Assembly (NCBI GenBank): GCA_947624085.1
Contig: CANQIK010000002.1
Span: 7,639-71,638 of the forward strand
Direction of reading: 5' to 3'
DNA from: an uncultured Bacilli bacterium
Lineage (GTDB): Bacteria; Bacillota_I; Bacilli_A; RF39; UBA660
Length of the DNA: 64,000 bases
Positions within the stretch are counted from its first letter, which is position 1. The number at the start of each line of letters is the position of its first letter. The translations under genes were made by a program, and so were the position numbers. Shown piece by piece: positions 964 to 44,577 of the stretch. The notes beneath the pieces were generated by a model. The model saw only the letters and a list, made by a program, of their open reading frames with translations. It was not told the origin of the DNA and did not search any database.

Positions 964-1039
964 GCTGGAGTAGCTCAGTTGATAGAGCAATGCCCTCGTA
1001 AAGCATAGGTCATAAGTTTGATTCTTATCTCCAGCACCA
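964..1039 (+). tRNA. tRNA-Thr (anticodon CGT)
   Basis: 76-nt cloverleaf. Acceptor stem gctggag/ctccagc is a perfect 7 bp. D stem is gctc/gagc. Anticodon loop ctCGTaa. T stem ataag/cttat. It ends with discriminator A plus CCA. The T-loop TTTGATT is slightly atypical. Confidence 0.75.
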
Positions 1040-1040
1040 T
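1020..1040. repeat. attL core: 21-bp direct repeat (gattcttatctccagcaccat) overlapping the 3' end of tRNA-Thr
   Basis: An identical 21-mer recurs at 39252..39272. The flanks diverge immediately on both sides. Confidence 0.75.
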
Positions 1041-24007: not shown

Positions 24008-27000
24008 ATGGGGCTTAATTTAGGAACAATTTATCAACAAAATTTAGCTGATGAGCAAAAAAAACGCAGTAATATTCAACCAAATAATAATGATTCTACA
24101 AAAGGTATCCACATTGGAACAATTTATAGTCAACCCAAAAGGAAAGAAACATCCATCGAAACATTGCAAAAGAAATATGTAGAGGAAAAGGAAAATTCTT
24201 ATAATAAGGCAAGTAATAAATTATATAATGCATCTAAATCTTTAAATAATTTTTTAAAGCAAAATAAAGTTGATAAGTTTAGCAATTTTGCTCCAACAAA
24301 TAAGAGGGATTATAACGAGCCTTTAAAGGTGCCAACAAAGAAAGATTTTATTGATACAGCCAAAAAAGCGGAAGAACAACAACAAAAAATATATTCATCA
24401 GAAACTTACAAAGGCTTAAAAGAAAATGTTGATAAATTGAGCGAAGAAGAAGATAAAGCATACCGAGAATATAGAAAAGCTATAGGAAAAGAAGAAGAAC
24501 CTTGGTATAGAAAAATATTACAAACTCCTGAGGCTCTTAAAGATGGTTATGACTTTGGCGATATAACGAAAACCCTTTTAAGTACCGGAGGAGATATCGC
24601 ATTAAGCTTAGAAAAAAGCTTTCAAGGAATTGGCCAAAATGCACTAAATTTACTAAATAATGCTGCTGCTCAAGTAGGAGATTGGATAGGCCAAGATGAA
24701 TGGGCGGATAAAGTAAGAGAAAATGTCAAAAATAATAAAGCAACTTTAATACCTGGAGTTTCAAACCCTGTTCACGATATGGCTAATCTAAACAATCCAG
24801 TAACAAATACGAATTTAGAACCATTAGTAAATAAAGATAGTATCTTAGGTGATACATCTAGAGAAGCTATTCAAGGAGTAGGATATTATACAGGCATGAC
24901 TGCACTTCAAAGTGTCGGTATTCCATGGCAAGCAACTGCTGCCACTACTTCTATTGGTAGTGAACTTCCCGAAGCTTATGCAAATGGTGCTACAGATGGA
25001 CAAGCTTGGGCTAGTGCTATAAATTCTGCTGCTTGGGAGGTCGCTTCTGAATATATCTCAGGTGGTATACCATTACCGGGTACAGGAAAAGGCTTAGATA
25101 AGTTAGCTTCGGGTTTTACCGAAAAGTTAAAGAATAATACGGCTAAATATCTCTTGGAAGCCGGTTATCAAATGGGTGGCGAAGGCTTAGAAGAACTTAT
25201 ATCAGGATTAGGCAGTTCAATTGGCAAGAAATTAACCTATATGAGTGATAAAGACTTTGCGGAAATATATTCTAAAGAAGACGCATTAAAAGACTTTGTA
25301 ATTGGTGGAGCGGTCGCAGGACTAACTAATTCAATTAATCCAACTACTTGGCATAATATAAATTCAGGTAAAAGTTTATTAACAGGTAGAACTTCACAAG
25401 AAGCTAATAGCAGAAATGAAACAATACAAAAGCTTTCTGTGGAGGCCGAACAAAGCAAAGGAAAGCCTTTAAGTTCTAAAGAAAAAATTGATATAGAAGA
25501 TTATGTCGATGGAACAATGCTAGATACCCTCTATTCATTAAAAGCTGATTTAGAAAATACGGAAGATGATAAGGCAAAAGCTTCTTTAACAAAACAAATA
25601 GAAGATTTGCAAGATAAAATAACAAATGTTGTTTTAAGTACTAAATCATTAGACATTTTACAATATCAGTTGAATCGCCAAAATCAAACAATACAATCAA
25701 CTATGCAATCCTCTGCAGTTAACGATGAGAATACAATGAGCTCTATGTTAATTCAAAATAATGTTAAAAATAGCATAGCACCTCAACAAAATGTAAACCC
25801 ATCTAATCAAGTATTTCAATTTACTACAACAGGAAATACTAAAGTAGATAATTTTTTGCAATCTGCAGTAGATAGTCGTTTCAATAATACAAAACAATCT
25901 CAAGATTTTTTAAATAGTTTCTCCAAGGTAATATCCGATAAAGGATATAATGTTTTATTTGATTCTACAATTAACAAAAATGGCAAAAGTGTGAACGGTC
26001 AAATAACAACTTTGAAAAACGGAGAAGTAGAAATAAGAATAAATCCTAATTCTAATAACGCAGGAGAATTTTTAATTGTTCACGAAATAACTCATGCAGT
26101 AGAAAATGAGGGATTAAGAGAACTTATCATAAATTATGCTCAAAAGCATTATGATTTTAAAGCTGCACTCCAAGATAAAATGAACCTTTATGGAACTAAT
26201 GAAGTTACAAGTGAAGTTGTAGCAGATATTTCAGCTCAAATTCTTGGCAATCAAGAATTTATAAATAGCTTAACCATGCAAAACACTCCTCAATCAAAAA
26301 CATTAATTAGAAAGATATATGATTCAATAAAGAGATTGGTAAATACTTTTACAAGTGAGGGCAGATACAAAAATTTTGTACAAGACCTAGAACAAAAGTG
26401 GAGAGAAGCTTATAGATCTACTACGCAAGAGCAAGCAGTTAGTAACTTGAAAAGTAATACAAGCTATTCGATTGGTGGAATTAAAGCGATTAATTCAATG
26501 GCTGATTCCAAGTATAAGTTTGATGCATTATATGATTACAATAGAGCTCTTGAAATGGCAGAAAGTGGAAAATATTCTAATGAACAAATTAGGAAAGAAA
26601 CTAAATGGTTTCAAGACAAAAATGGAGATTGGAAATTTGAATTTGATGATAGCTCTATAACATTAAAAACCGAAATACTTCATAAAAACGGGGCTTATAA
26701 GTTAGGAGACATAATAGAACATGATTATTTGTTTAAATTGTATCCTGAATTAAAAGATTACGATGTAATATTTGAAAATATGAAAGCTAATGGATCTTTT
26801 AATGTTAAAGACAAGAGAATAAGAGTAAACAATAATTTATTAAATTCTACTGAATATAAATCACTAAAGGGTACTATACTTCACGAAACACAACATGCAA
26901 TTCAATATATCGAGCGATTTCAAACTGGTATGAATGCTAGACTTAGTAAAAAAGCATATTATACTAGTTTAGGAGAAGTTGAAGCAAATGATACCAAAAT

Positions 27001-30000
27001 GAGATATATGAATGACTATACTAAAGAGGGTAGAAAAAATATAGCTCCTGAAAGTTCAAAATCTCATCCCACTCATCCTGAGTATGATAATTATATGAAA
27101 AATAGAGGCACAATTGACAAAATTAAGGATGCAGTGTATCCTTTATATGGAGGAATACTTCAAAATGCTAAAAAAAATCAAGAAGTTTTTTCGGAAAATA
27201 AGAGGCCGAATAATCGACTGGTGGATGGAAGAGGACTGTTAGATAACAGTTCTTTTTCTTTTGATGAAAATGTTAAAAGATATGACGATTTAAAATCTAC
27301 GAATAAAATTGAATTTTTTAAAAAAGATAATGGAGATATTCAAGTATCTTTAATTGATTCTAATAACAATTTGGTTAATCAATTTGATTTGATATCAAAT
27401 AACGATGCAATTAAACAACTTGGCAATGATATAGCAAATTATTTAATTGATAATGCAACAGATGATTATAAAACAATTTATATAGGTAATGATATTAACA
27501 ACCTAGGCAATGCAACAGATTATTTTATGAACCATAGGCCAAATGAAGATGGAGCAACTTCAGATAATTTAGCAAATCAAAATATTGAAACTCCAGGGCC
27601 AAAAGATTTATATGAGCATCCAGAATATTATTTTCCTATGAATGAAGAATATAGTAGGGAAAGTATTAGAGTATTAAATAAAATCAAAGGCAATCCGAAT
27701 GCTGATGTAACTATATATAGGGCAACAATTGGCAACGAAATTAACCCAGGTGATTGGGTCACTTTATCAAAAACATATGCCGAGTTGCACAATGAATCAC
27801 AATTTGATGGAAAGGCTAATATTCTTCAAAAAGAAGTCAAGGCAAAAGATGTTAAATGGGCAATGGATGATATAAATGAATTTGGTTATTATCCAACCGA
27901 TAATAATGTAAAAAACTCAATAAGTAACGCTGATAAGTGGCAAGAATATTTAGATAGACATTATAAAGCAACAGGTACTAGAACTAATATGAATTCTATT
28001 ATAGCTCCTACAAGAAATAAAGGACTAGATAATAGTTCTTTTTCTTTTGCTCAAGAACAATCTAATAGGTTAACGCAAAAAGAACAAGTAGAACTAAATA
28101 ATTTAAATAATCTACCATTTGAATTAAGTCAAGAAGAACAAAATAGAAAAACATATTTAGAAAATAAAGCTAAAGGTTTAATAAAATATCCAGAATTATC
28201 TCCTAAAATCACTTTTGAGGATATAAGAAATAGTTATTCAAAATATAAAAATCTAAATGACTTTAATAGTAATATTCTTGATAAGGCAGAAAGCTTCATA
28301 TCAGGATATAGAAATACTTCGAGAAGAACTAAAGCTGAATGGTTAGAAGTAGCTAAATTTATAGGTGCTAATTTAAACGCTAAAAATTCTACTGAATTAG
28401 AAAAATACGCAATTCAAAGTTGGCATAGTGCGAAACCTAATATAAAAGAAAATTTAAATAGACAAGGACAAGGATATGTTAAGTTCTCAATTGATGAGTG
28501 GGTTAATCAAATATATAAATCTGCAGGAGTTGGAGAAACAATTAAAGGAAGTAATAATACTAAAAATAGTATTAAAGCTCCACTAAAAAATAGTGATACT
28601 AATAAAGTAGTAGCTCCAACTAGAGAAACACTTAATAGTAGTTCAAAAGTATCAAATCCTAGTGAAATAGCTCAATTGACACCGGAGGATGCTAACACTA
28701 CACAAAAATTAAATTCAAAACAACGAAAGTGGGTTAAAACTTCTACTGAAAGTAATCCTGTTAAAGGAAAGGTTTTAATAGAAAACTTAGACTCTGCTAA
28801 AACAAATTATGTCGTTAGAAGCAACGAAAGCACATTGCAAAGTGCTAATTCAAAATTAAATTCTTTAGGTTATGATGAGTCAATATCATATATAAAGAGT
28901 AAAATGAGTGATAAAAAAGTTGATTTAGAAGATATAGCCTTAGCGGAAAGATTAATTCAAGAGTCAATAAAAAATGGAGATACTAAAACTGCTAGTGATT
29001 TAATAATGGATGTTGCTATTTTAGGCACTGAATTAGGCCAAAAAGTACAAGCATTATCAATAATTCAAAAATTAACTCCGGAAGGGCAACTTGCTATGTA
29101 TCAAAAAATTGTATCAAGAGCAAAAATAAAAGGCGAAAAAGCTTATACGGATGTAAATATTACTCAAGACATGGTAGATACCATACTAGGAGCTTATAAC
29201 GAAGATGGTACGTATAATCAAGATGATTTAAATGAAAGAGTAGAAATTTTTAAACAACAAGTTGCAGAACAATTAAAAAGTAGTAAGTCCGAAAAAATTA
29301 ATGAGTGGAGATATTTAAGCATGTTAGGTAATCCTAAAACTCATATTAGGAATATGGTCTCTAATTTAGCTATGACAGGCACAATTAAAGTTAAAAATGC
29401 AATGGCTAGGACAGGAGAGGCTATAGCATCAAAATTGACTACAATTGAAAGAACTAAAACCTGGAAGAAATCAAGCGATACTGTAACAAACTTTGCAAAG
29501 CAAACGGCTGAAGAGATGAAAAGTGTTATTTCTGGTGAAAGTAAATATGGTGAAAAAGCTTCAATAGAGTCTAAAAAACAAGTTTTTAAAAGTAAAACTT
29601 TAGAGAGAATCAGTGATTTTAATAGTAATGCACTTGAAGCAGAAGATTGGTTTTTTAGCAAAAGAGCATTTCAAAATTCTTTTAGTGAGTATTTAACTGC
29701 CAATGGAATAGAAACTCAACAAGATATAACCAATAATGCAAAACTTATTGAAAAAGCTAAATTATATGCCGTTGAACAAGCAGAAATAGCTACGTTTAGA
29801 CAATATAGTAAATTAGCTAGCTTAATTAATAAATTTGAAAGAAATAACAAAGTGGCGGGACTAGCAATAGGAGCTACTATACCTTTTAAGAAAACACCTA
29901 TTAATGTAGCTAAAGCAGGTGTTAACTATTCTCCTATTGGTTTAATAAAAAGCATAAGTTACGATGCTTTTCAGTTACATAAAGGGAATATAAATGCAAG

Positions 30001-31621
30001 TCAATTTATAGACAATGTTTCTCAAGGAATGACTGGAACAGCATTAACATTGTTGGGGTATGCTCTTGCAAAAGCAGGCTTTGTATCTGGTGCAGGAGAT
30101 GATGACAAAGAAGGCAAGATGGATTACTATTTAGGCAATCAATCATATTCTTTAAAGTTTGGAAAGACAACATTTCCAATAAGTTGGGTTTCACCTGTTG
30201 CCATGCCTTTCTTGGTTGGAGCTAATGCATATGAAAAATTAGAAAATCAAGAAGAATGGGATGCTAATATTGTTATCGATACATTAGCACAAACTTTAGA
30301 TCCTTTGAGCGAAATGTCTTTCATTTCTAGTTTAACAGATGTACTGCAATCTTATAACCAAGGCTCATTTAAGATGCTTTCATCTATGGGTACAAAAGCA
30401 GCACAAAGTTACATTGGACAATTTTTTCCAACTTTATTTAGCCAAATAGCCGCTACCTTTGATGACACAAAAAGATCAACATCAGCATCTAAGAACAGTT
30501 CGTTTAAAGTAGCAGAGGAAACTGTAAGGCAGATAATGTATAAAATACCTGGTTTAAGGAATATGTTGGAGCCAAGCACTAATATATGGGGTGAAGAACA
30601 AAAACAATCGGATAACATATTTGTAAGAGCGTTTAATAACTTTATAAATCCATCTTCTCCTAAAAGCTATGCACCAACGAAATTAGAAAACGAATTAAAA
30701 AGAGTTTATAGAGAAACAGGTGACTCTAGTGTTATACCTGGCATTCCTTATGGCAACATAAAATACAAAGGAATAAACTATCAAATGTCGTCTGAAGAAT
30801 ATACAAAATACAAAAAAACTTATGGCCAAAATGCTAAACAAAAACTAACAGCATTGATAGATAATGATGATTATAAGAAAGCAACTGATGAACAAAAAGC
30901 TAAAATGATAGATCAGGTATTTGATTTTTCAAAAGCTATTGCTAATGAGGAATACTTTAAATCAATTAAAATCGACTTTTCTAGTGACAATCTAAAAACG
31001 ATAAAGGAATTGAAAGAGTTAGGCTTTAGCGACAAAACTATTATTGATTATACTGCAAAATATGCGATTATTAATTCAATTAAGCAAGACAAAACTTTGA
31101 CAAGCGAGCAAAAGCAAAAGAATATTGCAAGTGAATTAATAAATAGCAACTTTAATAATAAAGAACTAGCATATATGTATGATAAAGCAGGCTACTCTAA
31201 AAAAGAAAAATTAGATGCATTAATAACTATGAACATTCCTATTAAAGAATTTATAAAATTGGATAGTTCAGATATTAGCAGTGACTACGATACAAGTACA
31301 GGCAAGGCTATAACTAATTCTAAGAAAAATAAATACATTAAATATGTGGATAGTTTAAAGCTTTCTACACCTCAAAAAGCTATTTTAATAAAAATGCAAT
31401 ATAACTCATATAACAATTACAATGATCAAATTGTAAAATACATAGATAGCTTAAAAGAGACAATAAATGATAAAAAAATATTGCTTACTAGGATAGGATT
31501 TGATGACTACAGAAAAGAGGTTATTAATTATGTGATGTCGAAATACAAGAATCCAGAAGAAAGAATTGAAATGTTGAAACAACTAGGATACACAATTAGA
31601 AACGGAAGGGTGTATTGGTAA
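24008..31621 (+). CDS. Giant multidomain virion protein (2537 aa) with two zincin-like HExxH motifs; polyvalent or ejection-protein-like
   Basis: A single uninterrupted ORF with RBS aaggagg. HEITH at 26081..26095 and HETQH at 26882..26896. No tape-measure-like periodicity. Confidence 0.8.
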   Translation: MGLNLGTIYQQNLADEQKKRSNIQPNNNDSTKGIHIGTIYSQPKRKETSIETLQKKYVEEKENSYNKASNKLYNASKSLNNFLKQNKVDKFSNFAPTNKRDYNEPLKVPTKKDFIDTAKKAEEQQQKIYSSETYKGLKENVDKLSEEEDKAYREYRKAIGKEEEPWYRKILQTPEALKDGYDFGDITKTLLSTGGDIALSLEKSFQGIGQNALNLLNNAAAQVGDWIGQDEWADKVRENVKNNKATLIPGVSNPVHDMANLNNPVTNTNLEPLVNKDSILGDTSREAIQGVGYYTGMTALQSVGIPWQATAATTSIGSELPEAYANGATDGQAWASAINSAAWEVASEYISGGIPLPGTGKGLDKLASGFTEKLKNNTAKYLLEAGYQMGGEGLEELISGLGSSIGKKLTYMSDKDFAEIYSKEDALKDFVIGGAVAGLTNSINPTTWHNINSGKSLLTGRTSQEANSRNETIQKLSVEAEQSKGKPLSSKEKIDIEDYVDGTMLDTLYSLKADLENTEDDKAKASLTKQIEDLQDKITNVVLSTKSLDILQYQLNRQNQTIQSTMQSSAVNDENTMSSMLIQNNVKNSIAPQQNVNPSNQVFQFTTTGNTKVDNFLQSAVDSRFNNTKQSQDFLNSFSKVISDKGYNVLFDSTINKNGKSVNGQITTLKNGEVEIRINPNSNNAGEFLIVHEITHAVENEGLRELIINYAQKHYDFKAALQDKMNLYGTNEVTSEVVADISAQILGNQEFINSLTMQNTPQSKTLIRKIYDSIKRLVNTFTSEGRYKNFVQDLEQKWREAYRSTTQEQAVSNLKSNTSYSIGGIKAINSMADSKYKFDALYDYNRALEMAESGKYSNEQIRKETKWFQDKNGDWKFEFDDSSITLKTEILHKNGAYKLGDIIEHDYLFKLYPELKDYDVIFENMKANGSFNVKDKRIRVNNNLLNSTEYKSLKGTILHETQHAIQYIERFQTGMNARLSKKAYYTSLGEVEANDTKMRYMNDYTKEGRKNIAPESSKSHPTHPEYDNYMKNRGTIDKIKDAVYPLYGGILQNAKKNQEVFSENKRPNNRLVDGRGLLDNSSFSFDENVKRYDDLKSTNKIEFFKKDNGDIQVSLIDSNNNLVNQFDLISNNDAIKQLGNDIANYLIDNATDDYKTIYIGNDINNLGNATDYFMNHRPNEDGATSDNLANQNIETPGPKDLYEHPEYYFPMNEEYSRESIRVLNKIKGNPNADVTIYRATIGNEINPGDWVTLSKTYAELHNESQFDGKANILQKEVKAKDVKWAMDDINEFGYYPTDNNVKNSISNADKWQEYLDRHYKATGTRTNMNSIIAPTRNKGLDNSSFSFAQEQSNRLTQKEQVELNNLNNLPFELSQEEQNRKTYLENKAKGLIKYPELSPKITFEDIRNSYSKYKNLNDFNSNILDKAESFISGYRNTSRRTKAEWLEVAKFIGANLNAKNSTELEKYAIQSWHSAKPNIKENLNRQGQGYVKFSIDEWVNQIYKSAGVGETIKGSNNTKNSIKAPLKNSDTNKVVAPTRETLNSSSKVSNPSEIAQLTPEDANTTQKLNSKQRKWVKTSTESNPVKGKVLIENLDSAKTNYVVRSNESTLQSANSKLNSLGYDESISYIKSKMSDKKVDLEDIALAERLIQESIKNGDTKTASDLIMDVAILGTELGQKVQALSIIQKLTPEGQLAMYQKIVSRAKIKGEKAYTDVNITQDMVDTILGAYNEDGTYNQDDLNERVEIFKQQVAEQLKSSKSEKINEWRYLSMLGNPKTHIRNMVSNLAMTGTIKVKNAMARTGEAIASKLTTIERTKTWKKSSDTVTNFAKQTAEEMKSVISGESKYGEKASIESKKQVFKSKTLERISDFNSNALEAEDWFFSKRAFQNSFSEYLTANGIETQQDITNNAKLIEKAKLYAVEQAEIATFRQYSKLASLINKFERNNKVAGLAIGATIPFKKTPINVAKAGVNYSPIGLIKSISYDAFQLHKGNINASQFIDNVSQGMTGTALTLLGYALAKAGFVSGAGDDDKEGKMDYYLGNQSYSLKFGKTTFPISWVSPVAMPFLVGANAYEKLENQEEWDANIVIDTLAQTLDPLSEMSFISSLTDVLQSYNQGSFKMLSSMGTKAAQSYIGQFFPTLFSQIAATFDDTKRSTSASKNSSFKVAEETVRQIMYKIPGLRNMLEPSTNIWGEEQKQSDNIFVRAFNNFINPSSPKSYAPTKLENELKRVYRETGDSSVIPGIPYGNIKYKGINYQMSSEEYTKYKKTYGQNAKQKLTALIDNDDYKKATDEQKAKMIDQVFDFSKAIANEEYFKSIKIDFSSDNLKTIKELKELGFSDKTIIDYTAKYAIINSIKQDKTLTSEQKQKNIASELINSNFNNKELAYMYDKAGYSKKEKLDALITMNIPIKEFIKLDSSDISSDYDTSTGKAITNSKKNKYIKYVDSLKLSTPQKAILIKMQYNSYNNYNDQIVKYIDSLKETINDKKILLTRIGFDDYRKEVINYVMSKYKNPEERIEMLKQLGYTIRNGRVYW

Positions 31622-33096
31622 TGAATCAAGATAAAACAAGAGCAGTAACTCTTGAAGATTTAATAAGAAGATATGATTTGGAAAATTTAAAATCCGAAAG
31701 AAAAGTCATTAAAACAATGGCTACTACAATAGAAAATCAACATACTATTATAAAACAATTTATAAAAAATACATATAAGTACTCAAATGACCAAGCTAAA
31801 TTAACGGCTTGGTTTTTTAGTGGTCCGCCAACCCTTACAAATGAGCCTTTTTCGAGCCTCTTGGACAAACAAAAGCAAGAAGAAGACCATTTATACTATG
31901 ACCGAGATACTGGACTTGTATACCGCCTAGAAAATGACGGAGGCTATAAGTGGACTCTTATTGAAGATGATAGTTTGGCTCAGTCTATGGCAATAGCCAA
32001 TTCTGATCCTGATTCGCAAGATAATAGAAGAAACATTTTCTATGAAACACCAACTCCACCTTATGCGGTGGGCGATATTTGGATTGATAATAACATTATT
32101 ATGCGTTGCCGATGTTCTAGAGATGGCGATTCGTTTAAAGACACGGAATGGGTAGAACAAAAATATTACTCGGAATCAAATGTTCTTTTAGATGTCAGGG
32201 CAGTTCTAGATAGCTTTATTGAAAATGTTGAAAAAAATTATATTACGACATCAAGACTCGAAACTACTAAAAACACTATAGAGGCAGAAATTACATCAAA
32301 ACTTGAGGGTGTAGCAGATGATGACGGGTTTGTAACAGTAGCTAGTCTTATTTTAGCAATCAATGGAGCAGAGTCTTCTGCTAAAATTAAAGCCGATAAA
32401 ATTGCTTTAAGTGCTACTGATATTTTAAACCTTATAGCAGGTAATGAAATTAATCTTACAAGTAGGAACATTACGATAAAGTCGGATAATTTCAGTGCAA
32501 CTAAAGATGGCACTGTAACCGCTAATAAACTTAAAGCGACGAATGTTGAAATATCCGGAACTATATCAGGAAGTAAAATAAGTGGTACTGATATAAATGC
32601 CGGAACAATAAAAGGTTCGGAAATTAGCGGTGGAAGTATTAAAGGCACAAATATTGAGGGAAATAATATAACAGGTGGAACTTTACATTTAATAAGTGAT
32701 AAGGGAAATGACATATTTATTATCGAAAATAGTGCGCATACCAAAAGACTTGAAATTACAGGAAATGGAATCTACTATTACACAAGTGATGATGGTAAAT
32801 ATTGGTGGTCGGCATCCCACATTGATTTTAGAGAAACGCAAGTAGATATCACAGGAATTACAGAAAAAAATGCTATAGCAACAGGAACTTGCCAATTAAA
32901 CCAAACAGATACAACAGTGTATTTTAATAAATCCTTTGGCGTTGCGCCTATTGTACTATTGCAATGTATTGAACCTACTTCGGATGTTACATATGTTGCA
33001 CATATTGCAAGTGTAACAGATACTTATTTTAAAGCATATATACCGATATTAGGCTTAAATGAATATAAAAACTTTTATTGGATAGCTATAGCATGA
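31621..33096 (+). CDS. Tail fibre protein
   Basis: ATG overlaps the upstream stop (TAATG). Repetitive G-[ST]-x-I-x-G beta-helix-like repeats such as NVEISGTISGSKISGTDINAGTIKGSEISGGSIKG. Confidence 0.6.
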   Translation: MNQDKTRAVTLEDLIRRYDLENLKSERKVIKTMATTIENQHTIIKQFIKNTYKYSNDQAKLTAWFFSGPPTLTNEPFSSLLDKQKQEEDHLYYDRDTGLVYRLENDGGYKWTLIEDDSLAQSMAIANSDPDSQDNRRNIFYETPTPPYAVGDIWIDNNIIMRCRCSRDGDSFKDTEWVEQKYYSESNVLLDVRAVLDSFIENVEKNYITTSRLETTKNTIEAEITSKLEGVADDDGFVTVASLILAINGAESSAKIKADKIALSATDILNLIAGNEINLTSRNITIKSDNFSATKDGTVTANKLKATNVEISGTISGSKISGTDINAGTIKGSEISGGSIKGTNIEGNNITGGTLHLISDKGNDIFIIENSAHTKRLEITGNGIYYYTSDDGKYWWSASHIDFRETQVDITGITEKNAIATGTCQLNQTDTTVYFNKSFGVAPIVLLQCIEPTSDVTYVAHIASVTDTYFKAYIPILGLNEYKNFYWIAIA

Positions 33097-33108
33097 GAAA
33101 GGAGAAAA

Positions 33109-33396
33109 ATGATAGTTATAGAATTTATTAAAGACTATTGGACTCAAATAGTCTTTTTGTTTGGCCTATTTTCAGCCTTTTATGGCCAATACAAAGCCTC
33201 CAAAAAGGCAACATTATGCAGTTTAAGAAATGACATTTTAGAAATTTATGACAAATGCAAGGCTTCAAAGACAATATCGTGCTTTCAAATGGAAAGCTAC
33301 ATAGATAGTAGAGATTTGTATTTCAAGCTTGGCGGAGACGGATTTATTCATAGACTTGATGACATCATTACCAAAGAATTTAAAGTTGTAGATTAG
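33109..33396 (+). CDS. Small membrane protein
   Basis: 95 aa with an N-terminal TM segment. RBS aaaggag. Confidence 0.45.
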   Translation: MIVIEFIKDYWTQIVFLFGLFSAFYGQYKASKKATLCSLRNDILEIYDKCKASKTISCFQMESYIDSRDLYFKLGGDGFIHRLDDIITKEFKVVD

Positions 33397-33408
33397 AAAG
33401 GAGTAACA

Positions 33409-35295
33409 ATGAACGAAATAAAAGTAAAAGTAAACTTTGCCAAAAAGACCTTAATAAAGACAGGCACGGATTTAACTGTGAATGATTATAATTCCACAAA
33501 ACTTGTCTTTGATTTTGATAGACAAGATGGTACAAAAATTTTAGAAATGATTAATCCATCTGGCGAGTTAGTTTTGTTAGAAAATATTAAAGACAATGAA
33601 GTTATCTTAACTGGTAAAACGGAAGATGGAAAAGACGCGTCGCTGTTTACCGAAGAAGGTCAGTATATTTTTGAAATTAGCCTTTATGAAGAAAATAGCA
33701 AACTTACATCTGCTAGTGGTAAGTTGCGAGTACGTGCAGAACAAGTTGAAATAAACGGACAGGTAGTAACTCAATATCTACCTGTTTTTGATGAGCTGTT
33801 ATCAAAAGTAAAAGAATCACTTGAGGAAGTTGAACTTTTAAAGGAAACGGTTATATATGATTGCACTACGGCAAGTGAAAAAGCAAAAGAAGTATCGGAT
33901 AAAGCAGAAGCTGCTGCAAAAAGTGCAACCGACTCTGCTGAAAGAGCAAATAGTGTAATTGACCAAGCTGAACAAGCAATCGGAGAAATTGAGAGTACTG
34001 TTCAAGACATCGAAAAAAGTAAAGAGGAAATGGAACAAGCAATCCAAGGCAAAGTGTCTGAAATGGAAAGTGTAATTACAACTAATACTACCAACTTAGA
34101 AAATTCTATTAATGATAAGACTACGGCTTTAGAAGAGGCTATTAATAGAAAAGCAAATGAATTAAGTACCTCAATTGAAAGTAAAACAACTGCTCTTGAG
34201 GAAACGCTTAATACTACTAAGGATTTGCAAAAGCAAGTAAAAGATAACAATGATAGTTTAACAGAACAAATCACAAAGTCTAACGAAGAACTAACAGAGC
34301 AAATCACACAATCTAATCAAGCATTAACTAGCCAAATTACGGAAGCTACGCAAAATTTAACCAATCAAATAGAAGAAAGTAGAACACAACTTGAAACTGA
34401 AATCGGGGAGCGGATTGCCCAAATTACTACATTGTCGGTTGATGTCGTAGAACAATTGCCTACAGAGAATATTAGCCCAACAACTATTTATTTAATTAAA
34501 CCTGAAAATTTGCCACAAGATGTACAAGCTCAATCAATATCAAAGAATATTGCTAAAAATACGATGGTTATATCTCCTTTAAATACTAATGATGTAAGAA
34601 CAATAGCTACTACTGGAGTAGGCGAAGAAAACTTTTATTTAGCTTGTTTTTATGTAAAAGAAAAATGGACAATTGTCGGTTCAACAACTACTGACTTAAC
34701 TCCTTATGCAAAGACTGTTGATGTAGAAAAGTCTATTAATAGTGCAAAAACTGAAATAAACGGAAACATTGATACTAAACTTGCTGAATATAAGAAGTCT
34801 ACGGATATTACAAGCGAAATTACAAGTGCGGTAGATAGTGCTAAACAAGAAGTTAAAGCCGAAATACCTACAAGCACCGAAGATTTAACTAATGATAGTG
34901 GCTTTATAACTTCAAACGATATTCCTAAAAACATATCTACTTTCACAAACGATAGTGGATACATTACAAGCAAAGATATACCAACTAATTTATCTTCATT
35001 TACAAATGATAGTGGGTTCATTACAAGCGGAGCAATACCAACAAATGTATCAGCATTTACTAATGACGCAGGATATTTAAAATCATTTACGGAAAGCGAC
35101 CCGACTGTACCTAGCCATGTTAAATCAATATCATCTGCAAATATCACATCTTGGAATAACAAGGCTGAAAAGAGTGCAATACCTACTAAATTAAGTCAAT
35201 TAACCGATGATTTACTTATCCAAGCAAGTAGCGAAAGTAATGCGAAGAGCTTGTCTACATCAAACCCTGGCAAATATTATTACACGTTAGAGTAG
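33409..35295 (+). CDS. Tail fibre/receptor-binding protein with a coiled-coil shaft and four 18-aa tandem repeats
   Basis: Central heptad-repeat region. C-terminal FTNDSG(F/Y)ITSxDIPxN(I/L)SxF repeated four times (about 34880..35100). Confidence 0.6.
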   Translation: MNEIKVKVNFAKKTLIKTGTDLTVNDYNSTKLVFDFDRQDGTKILEMINPSGELVLLENIKDNEVILTGKTEDGKDASLFTEEGQYIFEISLYEENSKLTSASGKLRVRAEQVEINGQVVTQYLPVFDELLSKVKESLEEVELLKETVIYDCTTASEKAKEVSDKAEAAAKSATDSAERANSVIDQAEQAIGEIESTVQDIEKSKEEMEQAIQGKVSEMESVITTNTTNLENSINDKTTALEEAINRKANELSTSIESKTTALEETLNTTKDLQKQVKDNNDSLTEQITKSNEELTEQITQSNQALTSQITEATQNLTNQIEESRTQLETEIGERIAQITTLSVDVVEQLPTENISPTTIYLIKPENLPQDVQAQSISKNIAKNTMVISPLNTNDVRTIATTGVGEENFYLACFYVKEKWTIVGSTTTDLTPYAKTVDVEKSINSAKTEINGNIDTKLAEYKKSTDITSEITSAVDSAKQEVKAEIPTSTEDLTNDSGFITSNDIPKNISTFTNDSGYITSKDIPTNLSSFTNDSGFITSGAIPTNVSAFTNDAGYLKSFTESDPTVPSHVKSISSANITSWNNKAEKSAIPTKLSQLTDDLLIQASSESNAKSLSTSNPGKYYYTLE

Positions 35296-35303
35296 GTGGG
35301 TAT

Positions 35304-35828
35304 ATGATATATAGACAAGGCAAAAAAGTAGATACTTTATATAAAGGTGGCAACAAGATAAACAGTATATACAAAAATGGGAATAAGATATATTCGGGAG
35401 TGTTTGTACCGCAACATACAAATATAGTTACGCTTAATCAACTTAACCTTACGGGCGACCAAGGAGAATTACAATATATATATATAGCTAGTATTACTCC
35501 GGGAGACCAACGTAATATTATATTGAGAATAAATGGTAAATTGAATACATCTTATGGAAATGTTTGGTATGCTTTTAAAGTTGAAGCATTAGGTAAAGGA
35601 GCCTTTCCAGGTTATTACATTCGTGCAGAAGATAAAGAAATTGAAAATACTCCTGAAATAGACAACTATACGAATTATGTAGATATGGGTGGTGAAGCTT
35701 CTAATCCAGTAACAATTAAAGAATTTGAAGTAACATTTAATACTATTGTTAACTTTTATGTATATATAATAGATACATATACAGGAGTAATTAAGTTGCC
35801 TATAGTATATACTGCTAGACCATCATAG
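35304..35828 (+). CDS. Cassette protein, paralog 1 (in-frame reference copy)
   Basis: The N-terminal module IYKNG.K(I/V)..(I/L)Y is repeated and is shared with the two downstream frameshifted paralogs. Divergent C-terminal domain. Confidence 0.6.
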   Translation: MIYRQGKKVDTLYKGGNKINSIYKNGNKIYSGVFVPQHTNIVTLNQLNLTGDQGELQYIYIASITPGDQRNIILRINGKLNTSYGNVWYAFKVEALGKGAFPGYYIRAEDKEIENTPEIDNYTNYVDMGGEASNPVTIKEFEVTFNTIVNFYVYIIDTYTGVIKLPIVYTARPS

Positions 35829-35849
35829 GCAAATTAGAAAGGAGAAAAC

Positions 35850-36252
35850 ATGGCAATATACAAAAACGGAAGCAAGGTAGCAAACCTTACAATTAATGGC
35901 AAGAAAATAAGTAAAATATACCACGGGGGGGGTAATATATAGTGGTGATACTGGGCCTTACGGAACAATTAAAATTGAAAACTGGTATATAGAATTTAGT
36001 GGGGAAACTTGCACCCTTATTTTTACACTAGCTAGTAATTCCAACAAACAATATTCTGTTAAACTTAATCCTCCGAATTTAAATACTGGGGTGCCAGGAT
36101 ATAATACAATTAAAATCCCAGTAGGAAAATACAAGATAACAGCGAAATCGTCATCGGAATATTATCCTGCTAATTATACTATTGATGGAAGTTCTTATGC
36201 AATGGGTTCATATTTAGATATAGGTGAAAAAACAATAACAATATCAGTTTAG
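35850..36252 (+). CDS. Cassette protein, paralog 2, split by a G8 tract
   Basis: A 30-codon leader MAIYKNGSKVANLTINGKKISKIYHGGGNI* stops after the G8 tract. A roughly 100-codon open frame follows with no start codon. At G7 it would read ...KIYHGGVIYSGDTGPYG, matching paralog 1. Confidence 0.55.
35925..35932 (+). repeat. Homopolymeric G8 tract inside a coding region
   Basis: Eight G in an approximately 30% GC element. Candidate slipped-strand switch. Confidence 0.7.
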
Positions 36253-36330
36253 TAAGTTGATGTGATTAATTTAAAAATATAAAAAGCAAAATATTAATTT
36301 GAACTAGACAAAAAGAAAGGAGGTGTGATA

Positions 36331-36531
36331 ATGAGTAACAAGGTTTACGATATTTTGAAAATTATAGCTTTAATTATTTTACCAGCCTTAACTGCTTGCA
36401 CTGGAACTATTTTAGAAGCTTTAAATGTTTCATGCAGTGGTGTAGTGGTTACAATAATGACTGCTATAAGTACTTGCTTAGGTACAATAGTTAGCAAATT
36501 AAGTTCAGACTACAAAAAGAAAAATAATTAA
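36331..36531 (+). CDS. Holin (putative)
   Basis: 66 aa with two TM segments and a charged C-terminus (KKKNN). RBS aaggaggtg. Sits upstream of the endolysin. Confidence 0.55.
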   Translation: MSNKVYDILKIIALIILPALTACTGTILEALNVSCSGVVVTIMTAISTCLGTIVSKLSSDYKKKNN

Positions 36532-36544
36532 GAAAGGATAAATT

Positions 36545-37125
36545 ATGGCAATTTATAAAAATGGTAAAAAGCTCACGAACCTGTATATAAACGGGAAAAA
36601 AGTAAGCAAGATTTACCACGGGGGGTAATATATAGTTCAAAATATGTGCCTACTTCGAAGATTGTAAAAACAGAGTTTTTGACTGTGGATTTATCGCAAG
36701 GTAGAACATTTTATTTAGACGCAGGAGTAAATCTTGAATATAATCAACAAACTTGGAGTGAAAATACTAACATTCGTAAAGAAGCGAGTCAATGTACTGT
36801 GCTTGGCGTATACGATAATACTTTTCGAGCTTACCTCCATAATTACGCAAATGTCTTTTTCCAATTTTCAAATCATTCTTTAGCAGGTACACCTGATTTA
36901 GATGATTATTCAAAATATGGGAATAATGGTGTTGCCGAAGAGTCAACAAGCCAAAACATTGAGATTCCGGCTTCCGGAACTCCAGTAACATTTTTTGCTT
37001 ATGGAAGAGGTTCTACCGATGATACATACCCATATCCTAGCTTGCCTCAAATTGTGAATTATGGTTCAAAAAGTGAGGATGTAGTAGAGACAATAATTAC
37101 GATAAAAGGTGAAATATCGGTATAG
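36545..37125 (+). CDS. Cassette protein, paralog 3, split by a G6 tract
   Basis: A 27-codon leader MAIYKNGKKLTNLYINGKKVSKIYHGG* stops after the G6 tract. The downstream 159-codon frame (track ORF 36646..37125, GTG start) would fuse in frame at G7, reading ...HGGVIYSSKYVPTSKIV. Confidence 0.55.
36620..36625 (+). repeat. Homopolymeric G6 tract inside a coding region
   Basis: Six G at the same position in paralog 3 as the G8 tract in paralog 2. Confidence 0.7.
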
Positions 37126-37218
37126 AAAGGAGAATATATATGAAAGAAATTATAAACGAAGAAATACAACTTACAGAAGAACAAATTGAAGAATTTTCAA
37201 ATAAAAAGGGAGACGAAA

Positions 37219-38298
37219 ATGAGTAATTCAAATTTAGTAGATGTAGTAGTACCTGCTTACGAGGGAAATTACACTAAAGGTAGAAGCAAAAAAATAGAAA
37301 AAATAACCGTGCACCACATGGCAGGAAAGTTATCAGCATATCAATGTGGAGCATATGTTTTTCAAACGGTAGGTCGCAAAGGCTCATCAAATTATGGAAT
37401 AGGTAATGATGGGGACATAGGCCTTTACGTAGACGAGGAAAACACTCCTTGGTCTGACGGAATTTGGGATAGCAATTGTAAATCAGTAACTATTGAAGTA
37501 TCTGATTGCCAAACAGGTGGAGTTTGGCCTGTATCCGATAAAGCACTCAATAGTCTTATCAGATTAGTAGCGGATATTGCTATTAGAAATAATTTGGGCA
37601 ATCTTGTTAAAGGCAAAAATTTAACTTGGCATAGAATGTATGACTCATCTAATATTTGCCCGGGGGATTATCTAATTTCTAAAATGGATTACATTTGCCA
37701 AGAGGCAAATAAGATAATAAATGGCTCAAGTGATACCGCAGAAGAATATTTTGTACCTAATGGGGAATATGTACTAAAGTTTGATAAATGTATTCGTACA
37801 AGTCCAAATTTAAGCAATAACATATTACGTGCCGAAAAAGTAGATTCATTCACAAAAACTTTATTAGTTTCACTAACAGGTAATGCAATGCTTAAAGCGG
37901 GAACGGAAATTAAATGTTTAAACATAATTAAGGAAAACGGTCGTATCTGGGGCAGTTATGGAAATTGTTGGGTATGCCTACAAAATGCCGATGGGGAGAA
38001 ACAAGCTACAAGAATAGCGGATAATTATTTTGAAGCAGGAGGTACTTATAAGTTAAATCTTGCTAAGTGTATCCGTACAAGTCCTTGCTTGAGCAATAAT
38101 ATATTGCCTGCTCAAAAAGCAGATTCATTTACAAAAACATTGCTTACTTCAACAACAGGCAATGCTATGTTGAAAGCAGGTACTGAAATAACTTGCCTAA
38201 AGATAACTAAAGAAAATGGCCGTATCTGGGGAAGCTACGGAAATTGTTGGGTATGTCTTCAAAACGATGATGGCACGAAGCAAGCGACAAGAATTTAA
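37219..38298 (+). CDS. Endolysin: N-acetylmuramoyl-L-alanine amidase (amidase_2/PGRP type) with two C-terminal cell-wall-binding repeats
   Basis: ITVHHMAGKLSAYQCGAYVFQ...GIGNDG matches the amidase_2 signature. Two tandem roughly 85-aa repeats follow (CIRTSP.LSNNIL...GRIWGSYGNCWVCLQN). RBS aaaagggaga then ATG 37219. Confidence 0.85.
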   Translation: MSNSNLVDVVVPAYEGNYTKGRSKKIEKITVHHMAGKLSAYQCGAYVFQTVGRKGSSNYGIGNDGDIGLYVDEENTPWSDGIWDSNCKSVTIEVSDCQTGGVWPVSDKALNSLIRLVADIAIRNNLGNLVKGKNLTWHRMYDSSNICPGDYLISKMDYICQEANKIINGSSDTAEEYFVPNGEYVLKFDKCIRTSPNLSNNILRAEKVDSFTKTLLVSLTGNAMLKAGTEIKCLNIIKENGRIWGSYGNCWVCLQNADGEKQATRIADNYFEAGGTYKLNLAKCIRTSPCLSNNILPAQKADSFTKTLLTSTTGNAMLKAGTEITCLKITKENGRIWGSYGNCWVCLQNDDGTKQATRI

Positions 38299-38302
38299 AA
38301 AG

Positions 38303-38334
38303 GTTAGTCGAATAACTCGGCTAACTCTTTTTTT
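38303..38334 (+). terminator. Rho-independent terminator after the lysis genes
   Basis: gttagtcg-aataact-cggctaac followed by tcttttttt. Confidence 0.6.
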
Positions 38335-38849
38335 GTGCAATAAATTTTACAATAAAAAAGTATTGATTTTTAAGAGAATATGTAATAATATAACAACTAT
38401 ACAAATTTACAAATAAATTTTTGAGTATTGCATTTTTTAGGTTGATTTGTATATAATAATTGTAGAATAGTAATGTTAGTTCTATTCTGATTTCGTTAGA
38501 ACATATAAAAAAGATGTGTTTCGTTATCGATGATATCTTTGCTTTATGTTTCTATTGCTTTTGATAGGACAAAAAAAGAGATGCCTTTATGTCGGTGCCT
38601 CTTAGTCCAAATTTATGGTTGTGGCACCTTATCTATGAAGATATGGTGCTTTTTAATTATTTGTCTTTGTCTTTTGGAAGCACTAATAATAAAATTATCA
38701 ATGCGAGTATATACTCCATTTATCTCCTTCAACACGGACATCACCTCGCTTTCCTTTTAATATTAAAAAATAAAAATCGGACTACGAGGAAGCACCAACA
38801 AGCATCTCAAAATTAATTATACAATAATTACTAAAATTCGACAATAATA

Positions 38850-39176
38850 TTATATTAGATACTTTTTATAATGAGCCTTATGTTCAGGATATCTTTCTAT
38901 CATAAAGTTATATATCATTTTTTTGACTACTTTATTATTTTTAGAATGGATTTCGATGATATGATCTTCATATGATAACGGTACAAGATTCCATACTTCA
39001 TTATTAGACCTATTTTGGTCGATGTGATGATAATGTCTTATATTAAAAACATCTCCTTTTTTAGGCAGATATCTTCCCATGTAATCAACTACATAATCAG
39101 GATTATCCCATGCCTCATAAATAGTATCTAATTGCTTTCTTATTTTATTAGGTATATCCATAAAATATTTGCACAA
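38850..39176 (-). CDS. HNH endonuclease
   Basis: HHIDQNRSNNEVWNLVPLSYEDH fits the HNH motif (H-H...N...H). Confidence 0.75.
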   Translation of the reverse strand: MCKYFMDIPNKIRKQLDTIYEAWDNPDYVVDYMGRYLPKKGDVFNIRHYHHIDQNRSNNEVWNLVPLSYEDHIIEIHSKNNKVVKKMIYNFMIERYPEHKAHYKKYLI

Positions 39177-39251: not shown

Positions 39252-39272
39252 GATTCTTATCTCCAGCACCAT
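39252..39272. repeat. attR core: second copy of the 21-bp direct repeat
   Basis: Identical to 1020..1040. Confidence 0.75.
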
Positions 39273-41952: not shown

Positions 41953-44577
41953 ATGACCGTTAATGATATATGGGGAAGAATTGTAATTGAAAAAGAATAT
42001 GAAGATATAATTAATAGTAAAGAATTTAGTAGCCTTAAACAAAAGACACAACTTGGCCTTAATTCGAATATTAATGCTACACACACAAGATATCAACATA
42101 GTATTGGTACATATTATATGGCTTGTAAGCTTATTGAAATATGTAAAAGAAAGTTTTCGGATATTTTAAACATTGATAAAGATGATGAAAGAGCGATAAA
42201 GGTTATGGCTTTGGTACATGACATAGGCCATGGGTGCTTTTCTCACGTTTCAGAAAAACAACTCGAGGGAACTCATGAAGATAGAACGGAAAAACTACTA
42301 TTAGATCCGACAACGGAAATTCATAAAGCTATTGTTGCTAACTTTGGTAAATCAGTTTTAGAAAAAACAATTTATTTACTAAAATTAAAAGAAAAGGTAA
42401 AAGCTTCAGGCACAGTTGAAGATAGTAAAAACTTAGTTTTTGTCATATGCAAACTCTTATCAGGAGGCATAGATATAGATCGTATTGACTATATATATCG
42501 TGACTCTCGCTATGCTTTAGGCGAAGAGAATGATTTTTCATCTATTTTAGATAGTATTGAACTTGAATGCATAGAGGGTACTTTAGAAGTTGTTTTTGAT
42601 GGTGATGCTGAATTTAAAATAGCTAATTTTCTTAATAAAAGATTTGAGTTATATGATACTTTATATATGAACTCTTCAACAAGAATTTTGGAACAGATAT
42701 TTGATAAGTTCTTAAAAGAAGCAGGTATAAAACTTACTTGGGATACTTCAGAAGTAGAAATGAACAATATCTTTAGAGAAAATTTAGACAGTAATAATCC
42801 TATTTTAAGAAGATACTCTCATTTATTAAGTTCTCGAAAAATAGATAGTTGTTTTGTTATTAAAGAATATGATGATGAAACTAAATTCAAACATTTTAGG
42901 AAAAGATTATTTTCGCGATGCCAAGTTTTAGAAAAATATCCTGAAGTTGTTTTTCAAGATAAATCAAAAGTAAGTGTATATAATAAAACTAACAAAGTTT
43001 TTGTTAATAAACAAGGAATAATTCAAGATATATCTGATTCATCGAAGATATTGAATTCATCATTACAAAAAGAGAAATATGTAATAGCAATTGATACTGA
43101 ATTACTAACTATTCTTTTGAAAAGAGACAATATTCCTGAAAAAGATATATCAGATATTTTAAAAGAAATAACAAAAGTAATGGCTCCTGAAATAGAGCAA
43201 GAAAAGAAGTATGTTTTTACTGATGATTTAGCGCAAAGTCCCGAAGAAGCCTTTGCAGAAATAAAAAACATATTGGGGCTTTCTAATCCTAAAATAGTCC
43301 AAAACCAAGATGTTTATTATGATCATGATCGTATACTTGAAAGCTATCGTATAGCTATTAGAAAAAGAGTATGCGGTGGTAAAGTTGAATGGACGGTAAA
43401 AAGACCTATCAAAGATAAAACTTCTCTTTCTAAAAGAGATGAAAAAAACTTTTCTTCCAAAGAAGAAGTAATAGATTTTTTAAACAGCGAATGGAATATT
43501 CCTATTAAGTCTTTAGAGGAAGCTATAACATTAAATACTACACGCGAAAAATATTATTTAGAGAAGGCTGGAGGTATATATGAAGTGGTTTTTGATAGAA
43601 CTACCCCTCATTTTGCCGATAGAAAATATCCTGAACAATATATGATAGAGTGTGAACTTAAAGAAGGAAATTCTTCTGGATTATTTGTTATAGATAGCCT
43701 TATTAAAAAACTTTCATTCATAAAAGAATGCAATAACTCTAAAAAAGAAAGAGCGTTAAGTTTAGTGGAAGAAGATAAAAATAAAGAAATAGATATAAAC
43801 TTTGATAAAGAGGATGTTATATATGATAAAGAAGTAGCTACTTTCTTCATCGGTAATCCAAAACTTTTAGAGAATTTAAGATATCTTGATAAGAAGAAAG
43901 ATGAGATAAGAAAATTAAGAGAAAAATTTGGCGATTTAAAAACTCCAATTGTAGTAACAATATCGGGAAGTCCTAGAGCAGGTAAAACAACCTGTGTTGA
44001 TAATTTGACAGAGTTTTTACGAAAAGCTGATCTTAGAGTTTCCTCATTAACTGAACCCGCGGGGATGATATATAGTACACTTAAAAGCCGGGCTGAAAAG
44101 AGGGCTTTACTTCAAGATAGGGTAGGCTTTGTGGATAAGCAATATGAAATTGGCACAAGTGCTATTCAAAGTAGTCTTGAAAATAGTGATGTTATTATTT
44201 GCGATCGTGGAGCTATTGATCCTTTTGTTTGGTATGATATGTACCATGCTTTAGGAATTGTTGATGATGAAAGATATCATAAATTTTTAGAAAATATTAA
44301 AAAGGCAAAAAACTATATAGATTGTTTTTATGCTTTATATGCGGAAAGTGAAGTAGCTATACAAAGAGATTACCTTAATTCATTATCAATAGAAGAGCGC
44401 AGTACGATGAGTAGGGAAAATGTTGAAAGATATAATAGTGCTTTACTTAGAATGCTACCAATAATTAGTGCAAACTGTGATACAATGAAATTAATTGATA
44501 CATCTAAGGCAGATAAAATGGATGTCTCTATTGAAGTGGCAGATAGAGTTATGGAAAGAATAAGGAGATTGTATTAA
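41953..44577 (+). CDS. Fusion of an HD-domain dNTP triphosphohydrolase-like N-terminus with a P-loop nucleoside/nucleotide kinase-like C-terminus (874 aa)
   Basis: N-terminus HTRYQHSIGTYYMACKL...ALVHDIGHGCFSH (HD, dGTPase/SAMHD1-type signature). C-terminus VVTISGSPRAGKTTC (Walker A)...ICDRGAIDPFVWYD (dNK/NRK-like lid). RBS gagaggaagg. Confidence 0.75.
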   Translation: MTVNDIWGRIVIEKEYEDIINSKEFSSLKQKTQLGLNSNINATHTRYQHSIGTYYMACKLIEICKRKFSDILNIDKDDERAIKVMALVHDIGHGCFSHVSEKQLEGTHEDRTEKLLLDPTTEIHKAIVANFGKSVLEKTIYLLKLKEKVKASGTVEDSKNLVFVICKLLSGGIDIDRIDYIYRDSRYALGEENDFSSILDSIELECIEGTLEVVFDGDAEFKIANFLNKRFELYDTLYMNSSTRILEQIFDKFLKEAGIKLTWDTSEVEMNNIFRENLDSNNPILRRYSHLLSSRKIDSCFVIKEYDDETKFKHFRKRLFSRCQVLEKYPEVVFQDKSKVSVYNKTNKVFVNKQGIIQDISDSSKILNSSLQKEKYVIAIDTELLTILLKRDNIPEKDISDILKEITKVMAPEIEQEKKYVFTDDLAQSPEEAFAEIKNILGLSNPKIVQNQDVYYDHDRILESYRIAIRKRVCGGKVEWTVKRPIKDKTSLSKRDEKNFSSKEEVIDFLNSEWNIPIKSLEEAITLNTTREKYYLEKAGGIYEVVFDRTTPHFADRKYPEQYMIECELKEGNSSGLFVIDSLIKKLSFIKECNNSKKERALSLVEEDKNKEIDINFDKEDVIYDKEVATFFIGNPKLLENLRYLDKKKDEIRKLREKFGDLKTPIVVTISGSPRAGKTTCVDNLTEFLRKADLRVSSLTEPAGMIYSTLKSRAEKRALLQDRVGFVDKQYEIGTSAIQSSLENSDVIICDRGAIDPFVWYDMYHALGIVDDERYHKFLENIKKAKNYIDCFYALYAESEVAIQRDYLNSLSIEERSTMSRENVERYNSALLRMLPIISANCDTMKLIDTSKADKMDVSIEVADRVMERIRRLY

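Follow-up and report, generated by a model that had tools for sequence, protein, structure and literature searches.

In Campylobacter phages, hypermutable polyG tracts have been reported to produce phase-variable expression of receptor-binding proteins (Sorensen et al. 2021, Cell Rep 35:109214, as cited in PMC10579305 and PMC10877375). Homopolymers of at least six bases have further been described as contingency loci in T2, T4, T6, ICP1 and other phages, reverting in T2 and T4 1,000-10,000 times faster than point mutations; the resulting frameshifts are reversible at 1e-4 to 1e-3 per population and their proposed role is bet-hedging, and homopolymer runs are under-represented in tail-fibre genes (Gomez, Barrick and Waters, bioRxiv 10.1101/2025.10.21.683753). 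The locus considered here lies in 64,000 nt (64 kb) of DNA from an uncultured Bacilli bacterium (GenBank assembly GCA_947624085.1, contig CANQIK010000002.1, positions 7,639 to 71,638), hereafter the window, whose positions supply all coordinates that follow. It comprises two paralogous genes in the late region of a temperate prophage, gene 1 and gene 2, each interrupted by a run of G shortly after its start. The reading that we favour, and that we hold to be about evenly balanced between right and wrong, is that these runs are slipped-strand contingency loci on two alternative distal-tail, probably receptor-binding, cassettes, both of them OFF as sequenced. A first-pass annotation of this DNA, which had already proposed phase variation, knew of no well-characterised phage system of this kind; in this it was mistaken, as the polyG loci of Campylobacter phages and the homopolymer loci of T2 and T4 had been reported.

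Position and reading-frame effect of the poly-G tracts

The G8 tract occupies 35925..35932 (+ strand) and the G6 tract 36620..36625 (+), exactly where and exactly as long as first annotated, and they are the only G or C runs of at least six bases in the window. Each follows a leader of 25 codons, that of gene 1 at 35850..35924 (+; MAIYKNGSKVANLTINGKKISKIYH) with a strong AGGAG ribosome-binding site and that of gene 2 at 36545..36619 (+; MAIYKNGKKLTNLYINGKKVSKIYH) with a strong ribosome-binding site of its own, and the leaders are built on a repeat module, [I/L]-Y-x-x-G-x-K. Both tracts stand at codon 26, the homologous codon of the two paralogous leaders, and their flanks are identical, with TACCAC on the 5' side and TAATATATAGT on the 3' side. 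The zero frame of gene 1 (ATG 35850) reads CAC GGG GGG GGT AAT ATA TAG and ends after 30 codons at TAG 35940-35942; that of gene 2 (ATG 36545) reads CAC GGG GGG TAA and ends after 27 codons at TAA 36626-36628. When G7 was substituted in silico, both genes gave uninterrupted products, of 133 aa for gene 1 and 193 aa for gene 2, in which ...Y-H-G-G-V-I-Y-S... leads into a long open frame (junction peptides ...IYHGGVIYSGDTGPYGTIK and ...IYHGGVIYSSK). A homopolymer within each coding sequence therefore sets the frame by a single base in either direction, with G6 and G8 leading to a stop within 0-3 codons. The early stops, the read-through at G7 and the offsets of one base too many in one copy and one too few in the other had all been claimed in the first-pass annotation and were reproduced here. 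Because the tracts differ by two bases and fall on opposite sides of the in-frame length, run length must have changed since the copies diverged.

The downstream frames, at 35933..36252 (+) in gene 1 and 36626..37125 (+) in gene 2, are open from the junction for about 106 and 166 codons, respectively, in DNA of 30% GC, and each encodes an orphan C-terminal domain. The first start codon available to the former is GTG 36091, in agreement with the earlier claim that it lacks a usable start, and the sole start of the latter, GTG 36646, has no Shine-Dalgarno sequence. By count alone, G6 is unremarkable: four GGGGGG words occur in the window against 3.2 expected, which is not above chance, and a G8 is unusual (0.11 expected). 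What is non-random about the tracts is their position, at the homologous codon of paralogous leaders and between identical flanks, and not the number of G6 words.

A mechanism may be proposed by which polymerase slippage during DNA replication would alter the length of a run by one base. At G7 (or G4 or G10), the leader would be joined to its C-terminal domain and the full protein would be made in the late operon, and at G6 or G8 the TAA or TAG that follows would leave only a leader peptide of 27-30 residues. In the sequenced population both switches would be OFF, and an uninterrupted paralog (P0001, 174 aa; 35304..35828, +) would act as the default tip protein. Rare single-step slippage, from G8 to G7 or from G6 to G7, could then equip a few virions with an additional or alternative tip, possibly as a form of host-range bet-hedging. 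From this arrangement we infer that run length varies within the population, that the products are receptor-binding proteins of the virion and that ON variants change host range. A more ambitious proposal, in which a portable switch block (TACCAC-Gn-TAATATATAGT) is kept at the anchor/head junction of two cassettes as a two-bit combinatorial host-range switch, must be regarded as doubtful; if true, it would allow one temperate phage to display the default tip together with either, both or neither of the alternative tips.

Homologues of the fused frames and conservation of the tract block

A tblastn search of phage genomes with the fused form of gene 2 returned one protein, UKM63007.1 of Levilactobacillus phage ENFP1 (Herelleviridae), over residues 1-47 and thus across the junction (E 6e-3). 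This protein (L006:6001-8067; 688 aa) starts LAIYKNGKKINSIYKNGKEISSMYKGGKLIYS..., bears the [I/L]-Y-x-x-G-x-K triple repeat at its N-terminus and has a beta-propeller domain after it. When GTDB genomes were scanned with a 493-aa tail protein from the neighbourhood of the cassettes, a related prophage emerged, locus L016 (uncultured Bacilli, rabbit-gut metagenome-assembled genome Lapin-007 bin8, CANQFJ010000005.1), with 68% identity over the whole protein. The gene order of L016 is that of the window (giant protein, 494 aa, 95 aa, fibre, one cassette, holin, endolysin), and its sole cassette, of 295 aa (MLAINNKKISKLYIGGKEVTSMYIAGQKIYKSG...), has the same N-terminal repeats as in the window and a DUF6273 domain; its leader aligns with the family made up of gene 1, gene 2, the intact paralog and the ENFP1 protein. 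An alignment of those four has 11 invariant columns, among them I-Y-S (I29 Y30 S31) directly after the tract. Because the fused frames align across the junction with uninterrupted relatives, leader and downstream frame are, as judged from this alignment, one gene whose coding and ancestral state is G7 (or G4 or G10). The earlier view of G7 as the ancestral ON state is accordingly strengthened, in the form G7 plus or minus 3n, by the invariance of I-Y-S relative to three uninterrupted relatives.

Beyond these relatives the family is sparsely represented. Among eight loci in IMG/VR and GTDB genomes with relatives of the 493-aa protein, a leader-family gene was present only in L016. Exact junction patterns were absent from IMG/VR and the JGI metagenomes, leader-based and fused-protein scans of IMG/VR gave nothing that could be confirmed, and a degenerate DNA pattern for AIYKNGKK yielded 86 metagenomic loci, none of them a true leader by hidden Markov model. 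A leader-profile search added one marginal 88-aa protein (P0003, L011:39-305) on a contig of 540 nt. The triple repeat is found on otherwise unrelated proteins, namely the 688-aa ENFP1 protein and this metagenomic open reading frame (ORF), and seems to be a rare, undescribed attachment module without a Pfam or PHROG family. Scans of the three window cassettes against Pfam and PHROG gave no significant match; of the fused gene 2 product and the paralog, searched against 5.8 billion protein clusters, only the paralog itself was matched, and HMMER with the paralog against 1.84 billion representatives found only itself and a spurious match, a 7,571-aa eukaryotic repeat protein. At the DNA level, neither the cassettes nor 24 kb of the late region matched any of 50,697 phage records. 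Homology of the window's fibre to the protein upstream of the ENFP1 leader gene was considered and rejected.

At the position of the tract, ENFP1 has GGA GGT, L016 has GCG GGG and the paralog has AAT GGG, and by this comparison the tract, absent from the relatives, is derived. GGG is the rarest glycine codon of the phage (6%, in about 6,800 late-gene codons), the 21 Gly-Gly pairs of these genes never use GGG-GGG, and TAC and CAC are minority codons for Tyr and His in the same genes. When the two leaders are compared, 12 of the 17 same-residue codons with synonymous alternatives differ, which places synonymous sites near saturation. The eight codons TAC CAC GGG GGG GTA ATA TAT AGT (in the frame at G7) are nonetheless identical between the leaders, for which the chance, at 5/17 each, is about 0.29^8 = 5e-5. 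Since the block is identical despite near-saturated synonymous sites, and since a 25-nt patch of gene conversion within DNA of 71% identity is an unlikely source of that identity, the tract block looks to be under selection at the nucleotide level, and the tract would be one kept by selection and not a chance run, as expected of a contingency locus. Under such selection the tract would more probably be functional, as a DNA switch or as a site of recoding, than a lesion arisen by accident.

Tract length across assemblies and alternative explanations

Comparison contigs were retrieved by exact-protein look-up with the paralog, holin, fibre, endolysin and 95-aa protein. This provided seven other metagenome contigs (ENA ERZ27249363/368/370/377 and Logan ERR10663774/775/776) and, with the window, eight assemblies; the contigs are 99.97-100% identical to the window, near-clonal and of low coverage (~3x), and they seem to derive from a single study. 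Wherever a contig spans a tract, the length is that found in the window (G8 in 5/5, G6 in 6/6). It is conceivable that both sites are in truth G7 and that the lengths observed are homopolymer errors of sequencing or assembly, as homopolymers are error-prone, the comparison contigs have a coverage of only ~3x and contigs break at the tracts. However, the eight assemblies represent at least two pipelines (SPAdes-style ENA and Logan) and several runs, all of them +1 at one site and -1 at the other, and a systematic error would not be expected to act in opposite directions at two identically flanked sites; an artefact is thus very improbable. The breaks are themselves of interest, as 4 of about 11 contig termini in the 4-kb region abut a tract (~5e-5 under a uniform expectation): contig L003 ends 18 nt past G8, L009 and L010 begin within the last Gs of G8, and L023 begins at the first base after G6 (window 36626). 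Repeat collapse is not the cause, because the sequence common to both loci is shorter than the k-mers of the assemblers, and reads at the tracts are therefore either discordant or depleted, which could stem from length heterogeneity among the reads, as a switch would produce, or from an effect of poly-G on sequencing or coverage. Two of these breaks occur in ERZ27249377, the sample that also has the attP junction of the phage.

Several observations weigh against switching. The consensus tract length never varies, being G8 and G6, and hence OFF at both sites, in 8/8 near-clonal assemblies at ~3x; this is weak evidence, and says little about length variants at low frequency, but it does not support fast switching. 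The contig breaks could be technical, through loss of quality or trimming at poly-G and the 3x coverage. The closest related prophage, L016, has a single intact cassette without a homopolymer, and searches of IMG/VR and the JGI metagenomes and scans with leader patterns turned up no second genome with a tract of this sort, so that the comparison with related prophages for tract-length polymorphism, advised by the first-pass annotation, gave no evidence of variation. The fused protein of the ON state was not found in 5.8 billion clusters, a weak negative given that the index also missed P0001. The receptor-binding role is one that we infer, and AlphaFold single-sequence models were unusable (pLDDT 30 for fused gene 2, 40 for the paralog). 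Lastly, variants among the near-clonal contigs concentrate in the downstream frame of gene 2: two single-nucleotide polymorphisms (SNPs), both nonsynonymous (36728 T>C, Val to Ala; 36983 C>T, Pro to Leu), and a frame-breaking deletion of 65 nt (36955-37019) in contig L001, with contig L002 diverging after 36881 into a last 33 nt that match nothing in the window; the only other SNP among the assemblies is at 35018, in the fibre.

This clustering looks like relaxed constraint and is among the observations that speak for decay, in which the cassettes were inactivated at a slippage-prone Gly-Gly-Val run and are drifting to loss, the intact paralog sufficing and no adaptive switch being involved. 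Decay would also account for both copies being OFF in 8/8 assemblies, for a related prophage (L016) that manages with one cassette and for C-terminal domains without homologues in the searches run. However, for two frameshifts to have arisen independently at exactly corresponding positions, while the 106 and 166 codons downstream are otherwise undamaged, would take either a coincidence or a hypermutable site, and a hypermutable site would make reversion equally easy. The run of rare codons and its flanks are, moreover, identical in both copies, from which the run would predate the frameshifts and have been kept, and the phage is active, as its attP junction attests. We therefore consider decay improbable, if not strongly so. 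Should the tracts not switch, the locus would amount to two frameshifted orphan genes in a prophage. As for the contingency loci proposed in the first-pass annotation, they stand in part: the ancestral frame, the cassette family, a plausible tail association and an apparent maintenance of the tract are upheld, and switching is not, the consensus being the same G8 and G6 in 8/8.

It may also be proposed that G8 and G6 are functional at a fixed length, some full-length protein being made through stuttering of RNA polymerase or slippage of P-site tRNA-Gly, so that leader peptide and full protein would be produced in a fixed proportion. Gene 1 would require a shift of +1 on GGG GGG GGU and gene 2 a shift of -1 on G GGG UAA with the stop in the A site; tRNA slippage would be stimulated by the rare GGG codon in gene 1 and by the UAA in gene 2. 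A stop or hungry codon next to a slippery run promotes P-site slippage, and the stop codon of gene 2 directly after its run, the rarity of GGG (6%), which favours pausing, the lengths invariant in eight assemblies and the conservation of the tract block at the nucleotide level would all be accommodated. However, the paralogs would need opposite shifts from otherwise identical signals, which is unexpected of a fixed signal. Known bacterial sites of transcriptional slippage are A/T runs of about nine or more, and the present runs are G8 and G6. Programmed frameshifting is familiar from tail assembly chaperones, with the -1 frameshift of the lambda G/GT type; the likeness to the present locus lies in two overlapping late-gene frames joined by a shift at a slippery run. 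The locus differs from G/GT in that it does not occupy the chaperone position, has no canonical X XXY YYZ heptamer in the zero frame of either gene, lacks a conserved direction of shift and shows no stimulatory structure. No downstream RNA structure stands out: folding of 78-96 nt downstream of the tracts gave z-scores of 0.25, 0.46, -1.26 and -1.86, no better than shuffled controls, and no structure in common. Recoding at a fixed length is accordingly held to be quite unlikely.

Tail module, active phage and relation to known systems

Returning to contingency loci on tail cassettes, the cassette products are probably, on indirect evidence, tail-tip or receptor-binding proteins. In the late operon, the cassettes immediately follow a 628-aa tail fibre (33409..35295, +), and an architecture of constant anchor and variable head fits such proteins. 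Leader homologues are fused to DUF6273 in L016 and to a beta-propeller in ENFP1, and DUF6273 has been modelled as a C-type-lectin-like domain in phage receptor-binding proteins diversified by diversity-generating retroelements (DGRs) (PMC10743442). With the genes placed directly after the fibre and relatives carrying such domains, the tail association first suggested for the cassettes is plausible. The variable C-terminal domains of the first-pass annotation were likewise borne out, as the three cassettes form a family that has only the N-terminal module in common: the C-termini of gene 1 and the paralog are without similarity, and those of gene 2 and the paralog show a faint match at equivalent positions (E 0.012, single comparison). 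The paralog has the N-terminal module of the leaders but no homopolymer, reading AAT GGG AAT where the tract would be, and is presumably the cassette that is expressed by default and at all times. Between the fibres of the window and of L016 (L016:11798-14110), the N-terminal ~190 aa are 60% and the last 26 aa 58% identical, and the middle has been swapped, which suggests, if only indirectly, that the fibre C-terminus may be the docking site of the leader. In the window the swapped part is a coiled coil containing TNDSGFITS repeats, and in L016 it is a series of collagen-like Gly-X-Y repeats. It is also a possibility that the leader peptides of the OFF state, of 27-30 residues, are functional themselves, for instance as occupants of the fibre's attachment site.

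Gene 1 is separated from gene 2 by a Dp-1-type holin (36331..36531, +), and gene 2 lies between this holin and an Amidase_2 endolysin (37219..38298, +) with two C-terminal wall-binding repeats. Scans for promoters and terminators around the tracts gave nothing above background. An acidic ORF of 28 codons (MKEIINEEIQLTEEQIEEFSNKKGDENE; 37140-37226) with a strong ribosome-binding site is situated between gene 2 and the endolysin, the start of which it overlaps. The wall-binding repeats, of ~93 aa, are underlain by a direct repeat of 241 nt at 37775 and 38054 and are held in common with the L016 endolysin (L016:15237-16289), and the catalytic domains differ (Amidase_2 in the window, a weak NlpC/P60 match in L016); these differences reflect module shuffling within one host lineage.

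The element as a whole is a 38.2-kb temperate phage integrated at a tRNA-Thr gene, and it excises or circularises in vivo. A 21-bp core, GATTCTTATCTCCAGCACCAT, forms attL at 1020..1040 (+), where it overlaps the 3' end of tRNA-Thr(CGT) (964-1039), and recurs as attR at 39252..39272 (+). Excision follows from contig L023 of ERZ27249377, which joins 39272 directly to 1041 (L023:2590-2681), that is, the attP junction. The gene set includes an integrase (1150-2283, -), large terminase, portal, major head protein, holin and endolysin; none of its genes could be recognised as coding for a tape measure or tail tube. The structural module contains a protein of 2,537 aa (24008-31621) with a match to LPD23 (large polyvalent protein) and a ParB C-terminal-like segment. 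Both prophages have, at their right end and within attR, a conserved gene of ~105 aa without a family match (38850-39176, -; L016:16527-16838, -), which may be a moron or a gene expressed in lysogeny. Just outside the prophage, an 874-aa host protein (41953-44577) has a weak N-terminal HD/dGTP-triphosphohydrolase-like match; its matches include an anti-phage dGTPase model, all of them far below the cut-off, and it could be a defence-type gene beside the attachment site. An assignment of this protein to MutS was rejected, the weak HD/dGTPase-like N-terminus being its only match.

Other phages diversify their tail fibres by means of invertible segments, as in the G and C segments of Mu and P1. 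The present locus would resemble such segments, and the DGR-diversified Mtd and tentaclin proteins (PMC10743442 for DGRs), in outcome, in that a single phage genome would offer alternative C-termini for receptor binding on an unchanging anchor. The mechanism is unlike that of Mu and P1, as no invertase-flanked segment was found around the cassettes. Nor was a template/variable repeat pair found in 33000-38500, no search for a reverse transcriptase having gone beyond this, and the three window cassettes have no Pfam match that would mark them as DGR-diversified C-type lectins, DUF6273 being confined to the L016 relative. The loci of the T2/T4 type are alike in that short homopolymers lie within phage ORFs. 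However, those are mostly poly-A/T and common in AT-rich genomes, whereas here the runs are compositionally atypical Gs of the rarest glycine codon, duplicated and set in a tail module. If a switch of this kind is indeed at work, it would join DGRs and invertible segments as a means of host-range hedging in gut phages, and would do so by a compact design of conserved anchor, switch and variable head, duplicated in one genome. This design could be searched for elsewhere, but it is hidden by current gene callers, because the interrupted genes were not called in any assembly.

The closest comparison is with the Campylobacter phages (Fletchervirus), which share with this locus an intragenic poly-G in a putative host-recognition gene, ON/OFF control by a frameshift of one base and the concept of host-range bet-hedging. 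Those phages are lytic, whereas the present one is a temperate prophage of low-GC Gram-positive gut Bacilli; the proteins are of unrelated families; here there would be two paralogous switches, identical in their tract block and placed exactly at the junction of anchor and variable domain; and heterogeneity of tract length and a phenotype are in this case predictions. The kind of system would thus be one already known, found in a different phage and host lineage and with a duplicated junction design. If the tracts switch, this would be the first case found in which a temperate phage infecting a Gram-positive gut commensal phase-varies its tail-tip proteins by means of a homopolymer, and polyG phase variation of phage receptor-binding proteins would extend beyond Campylobacter phages to the prophages of gut Firmicutes.

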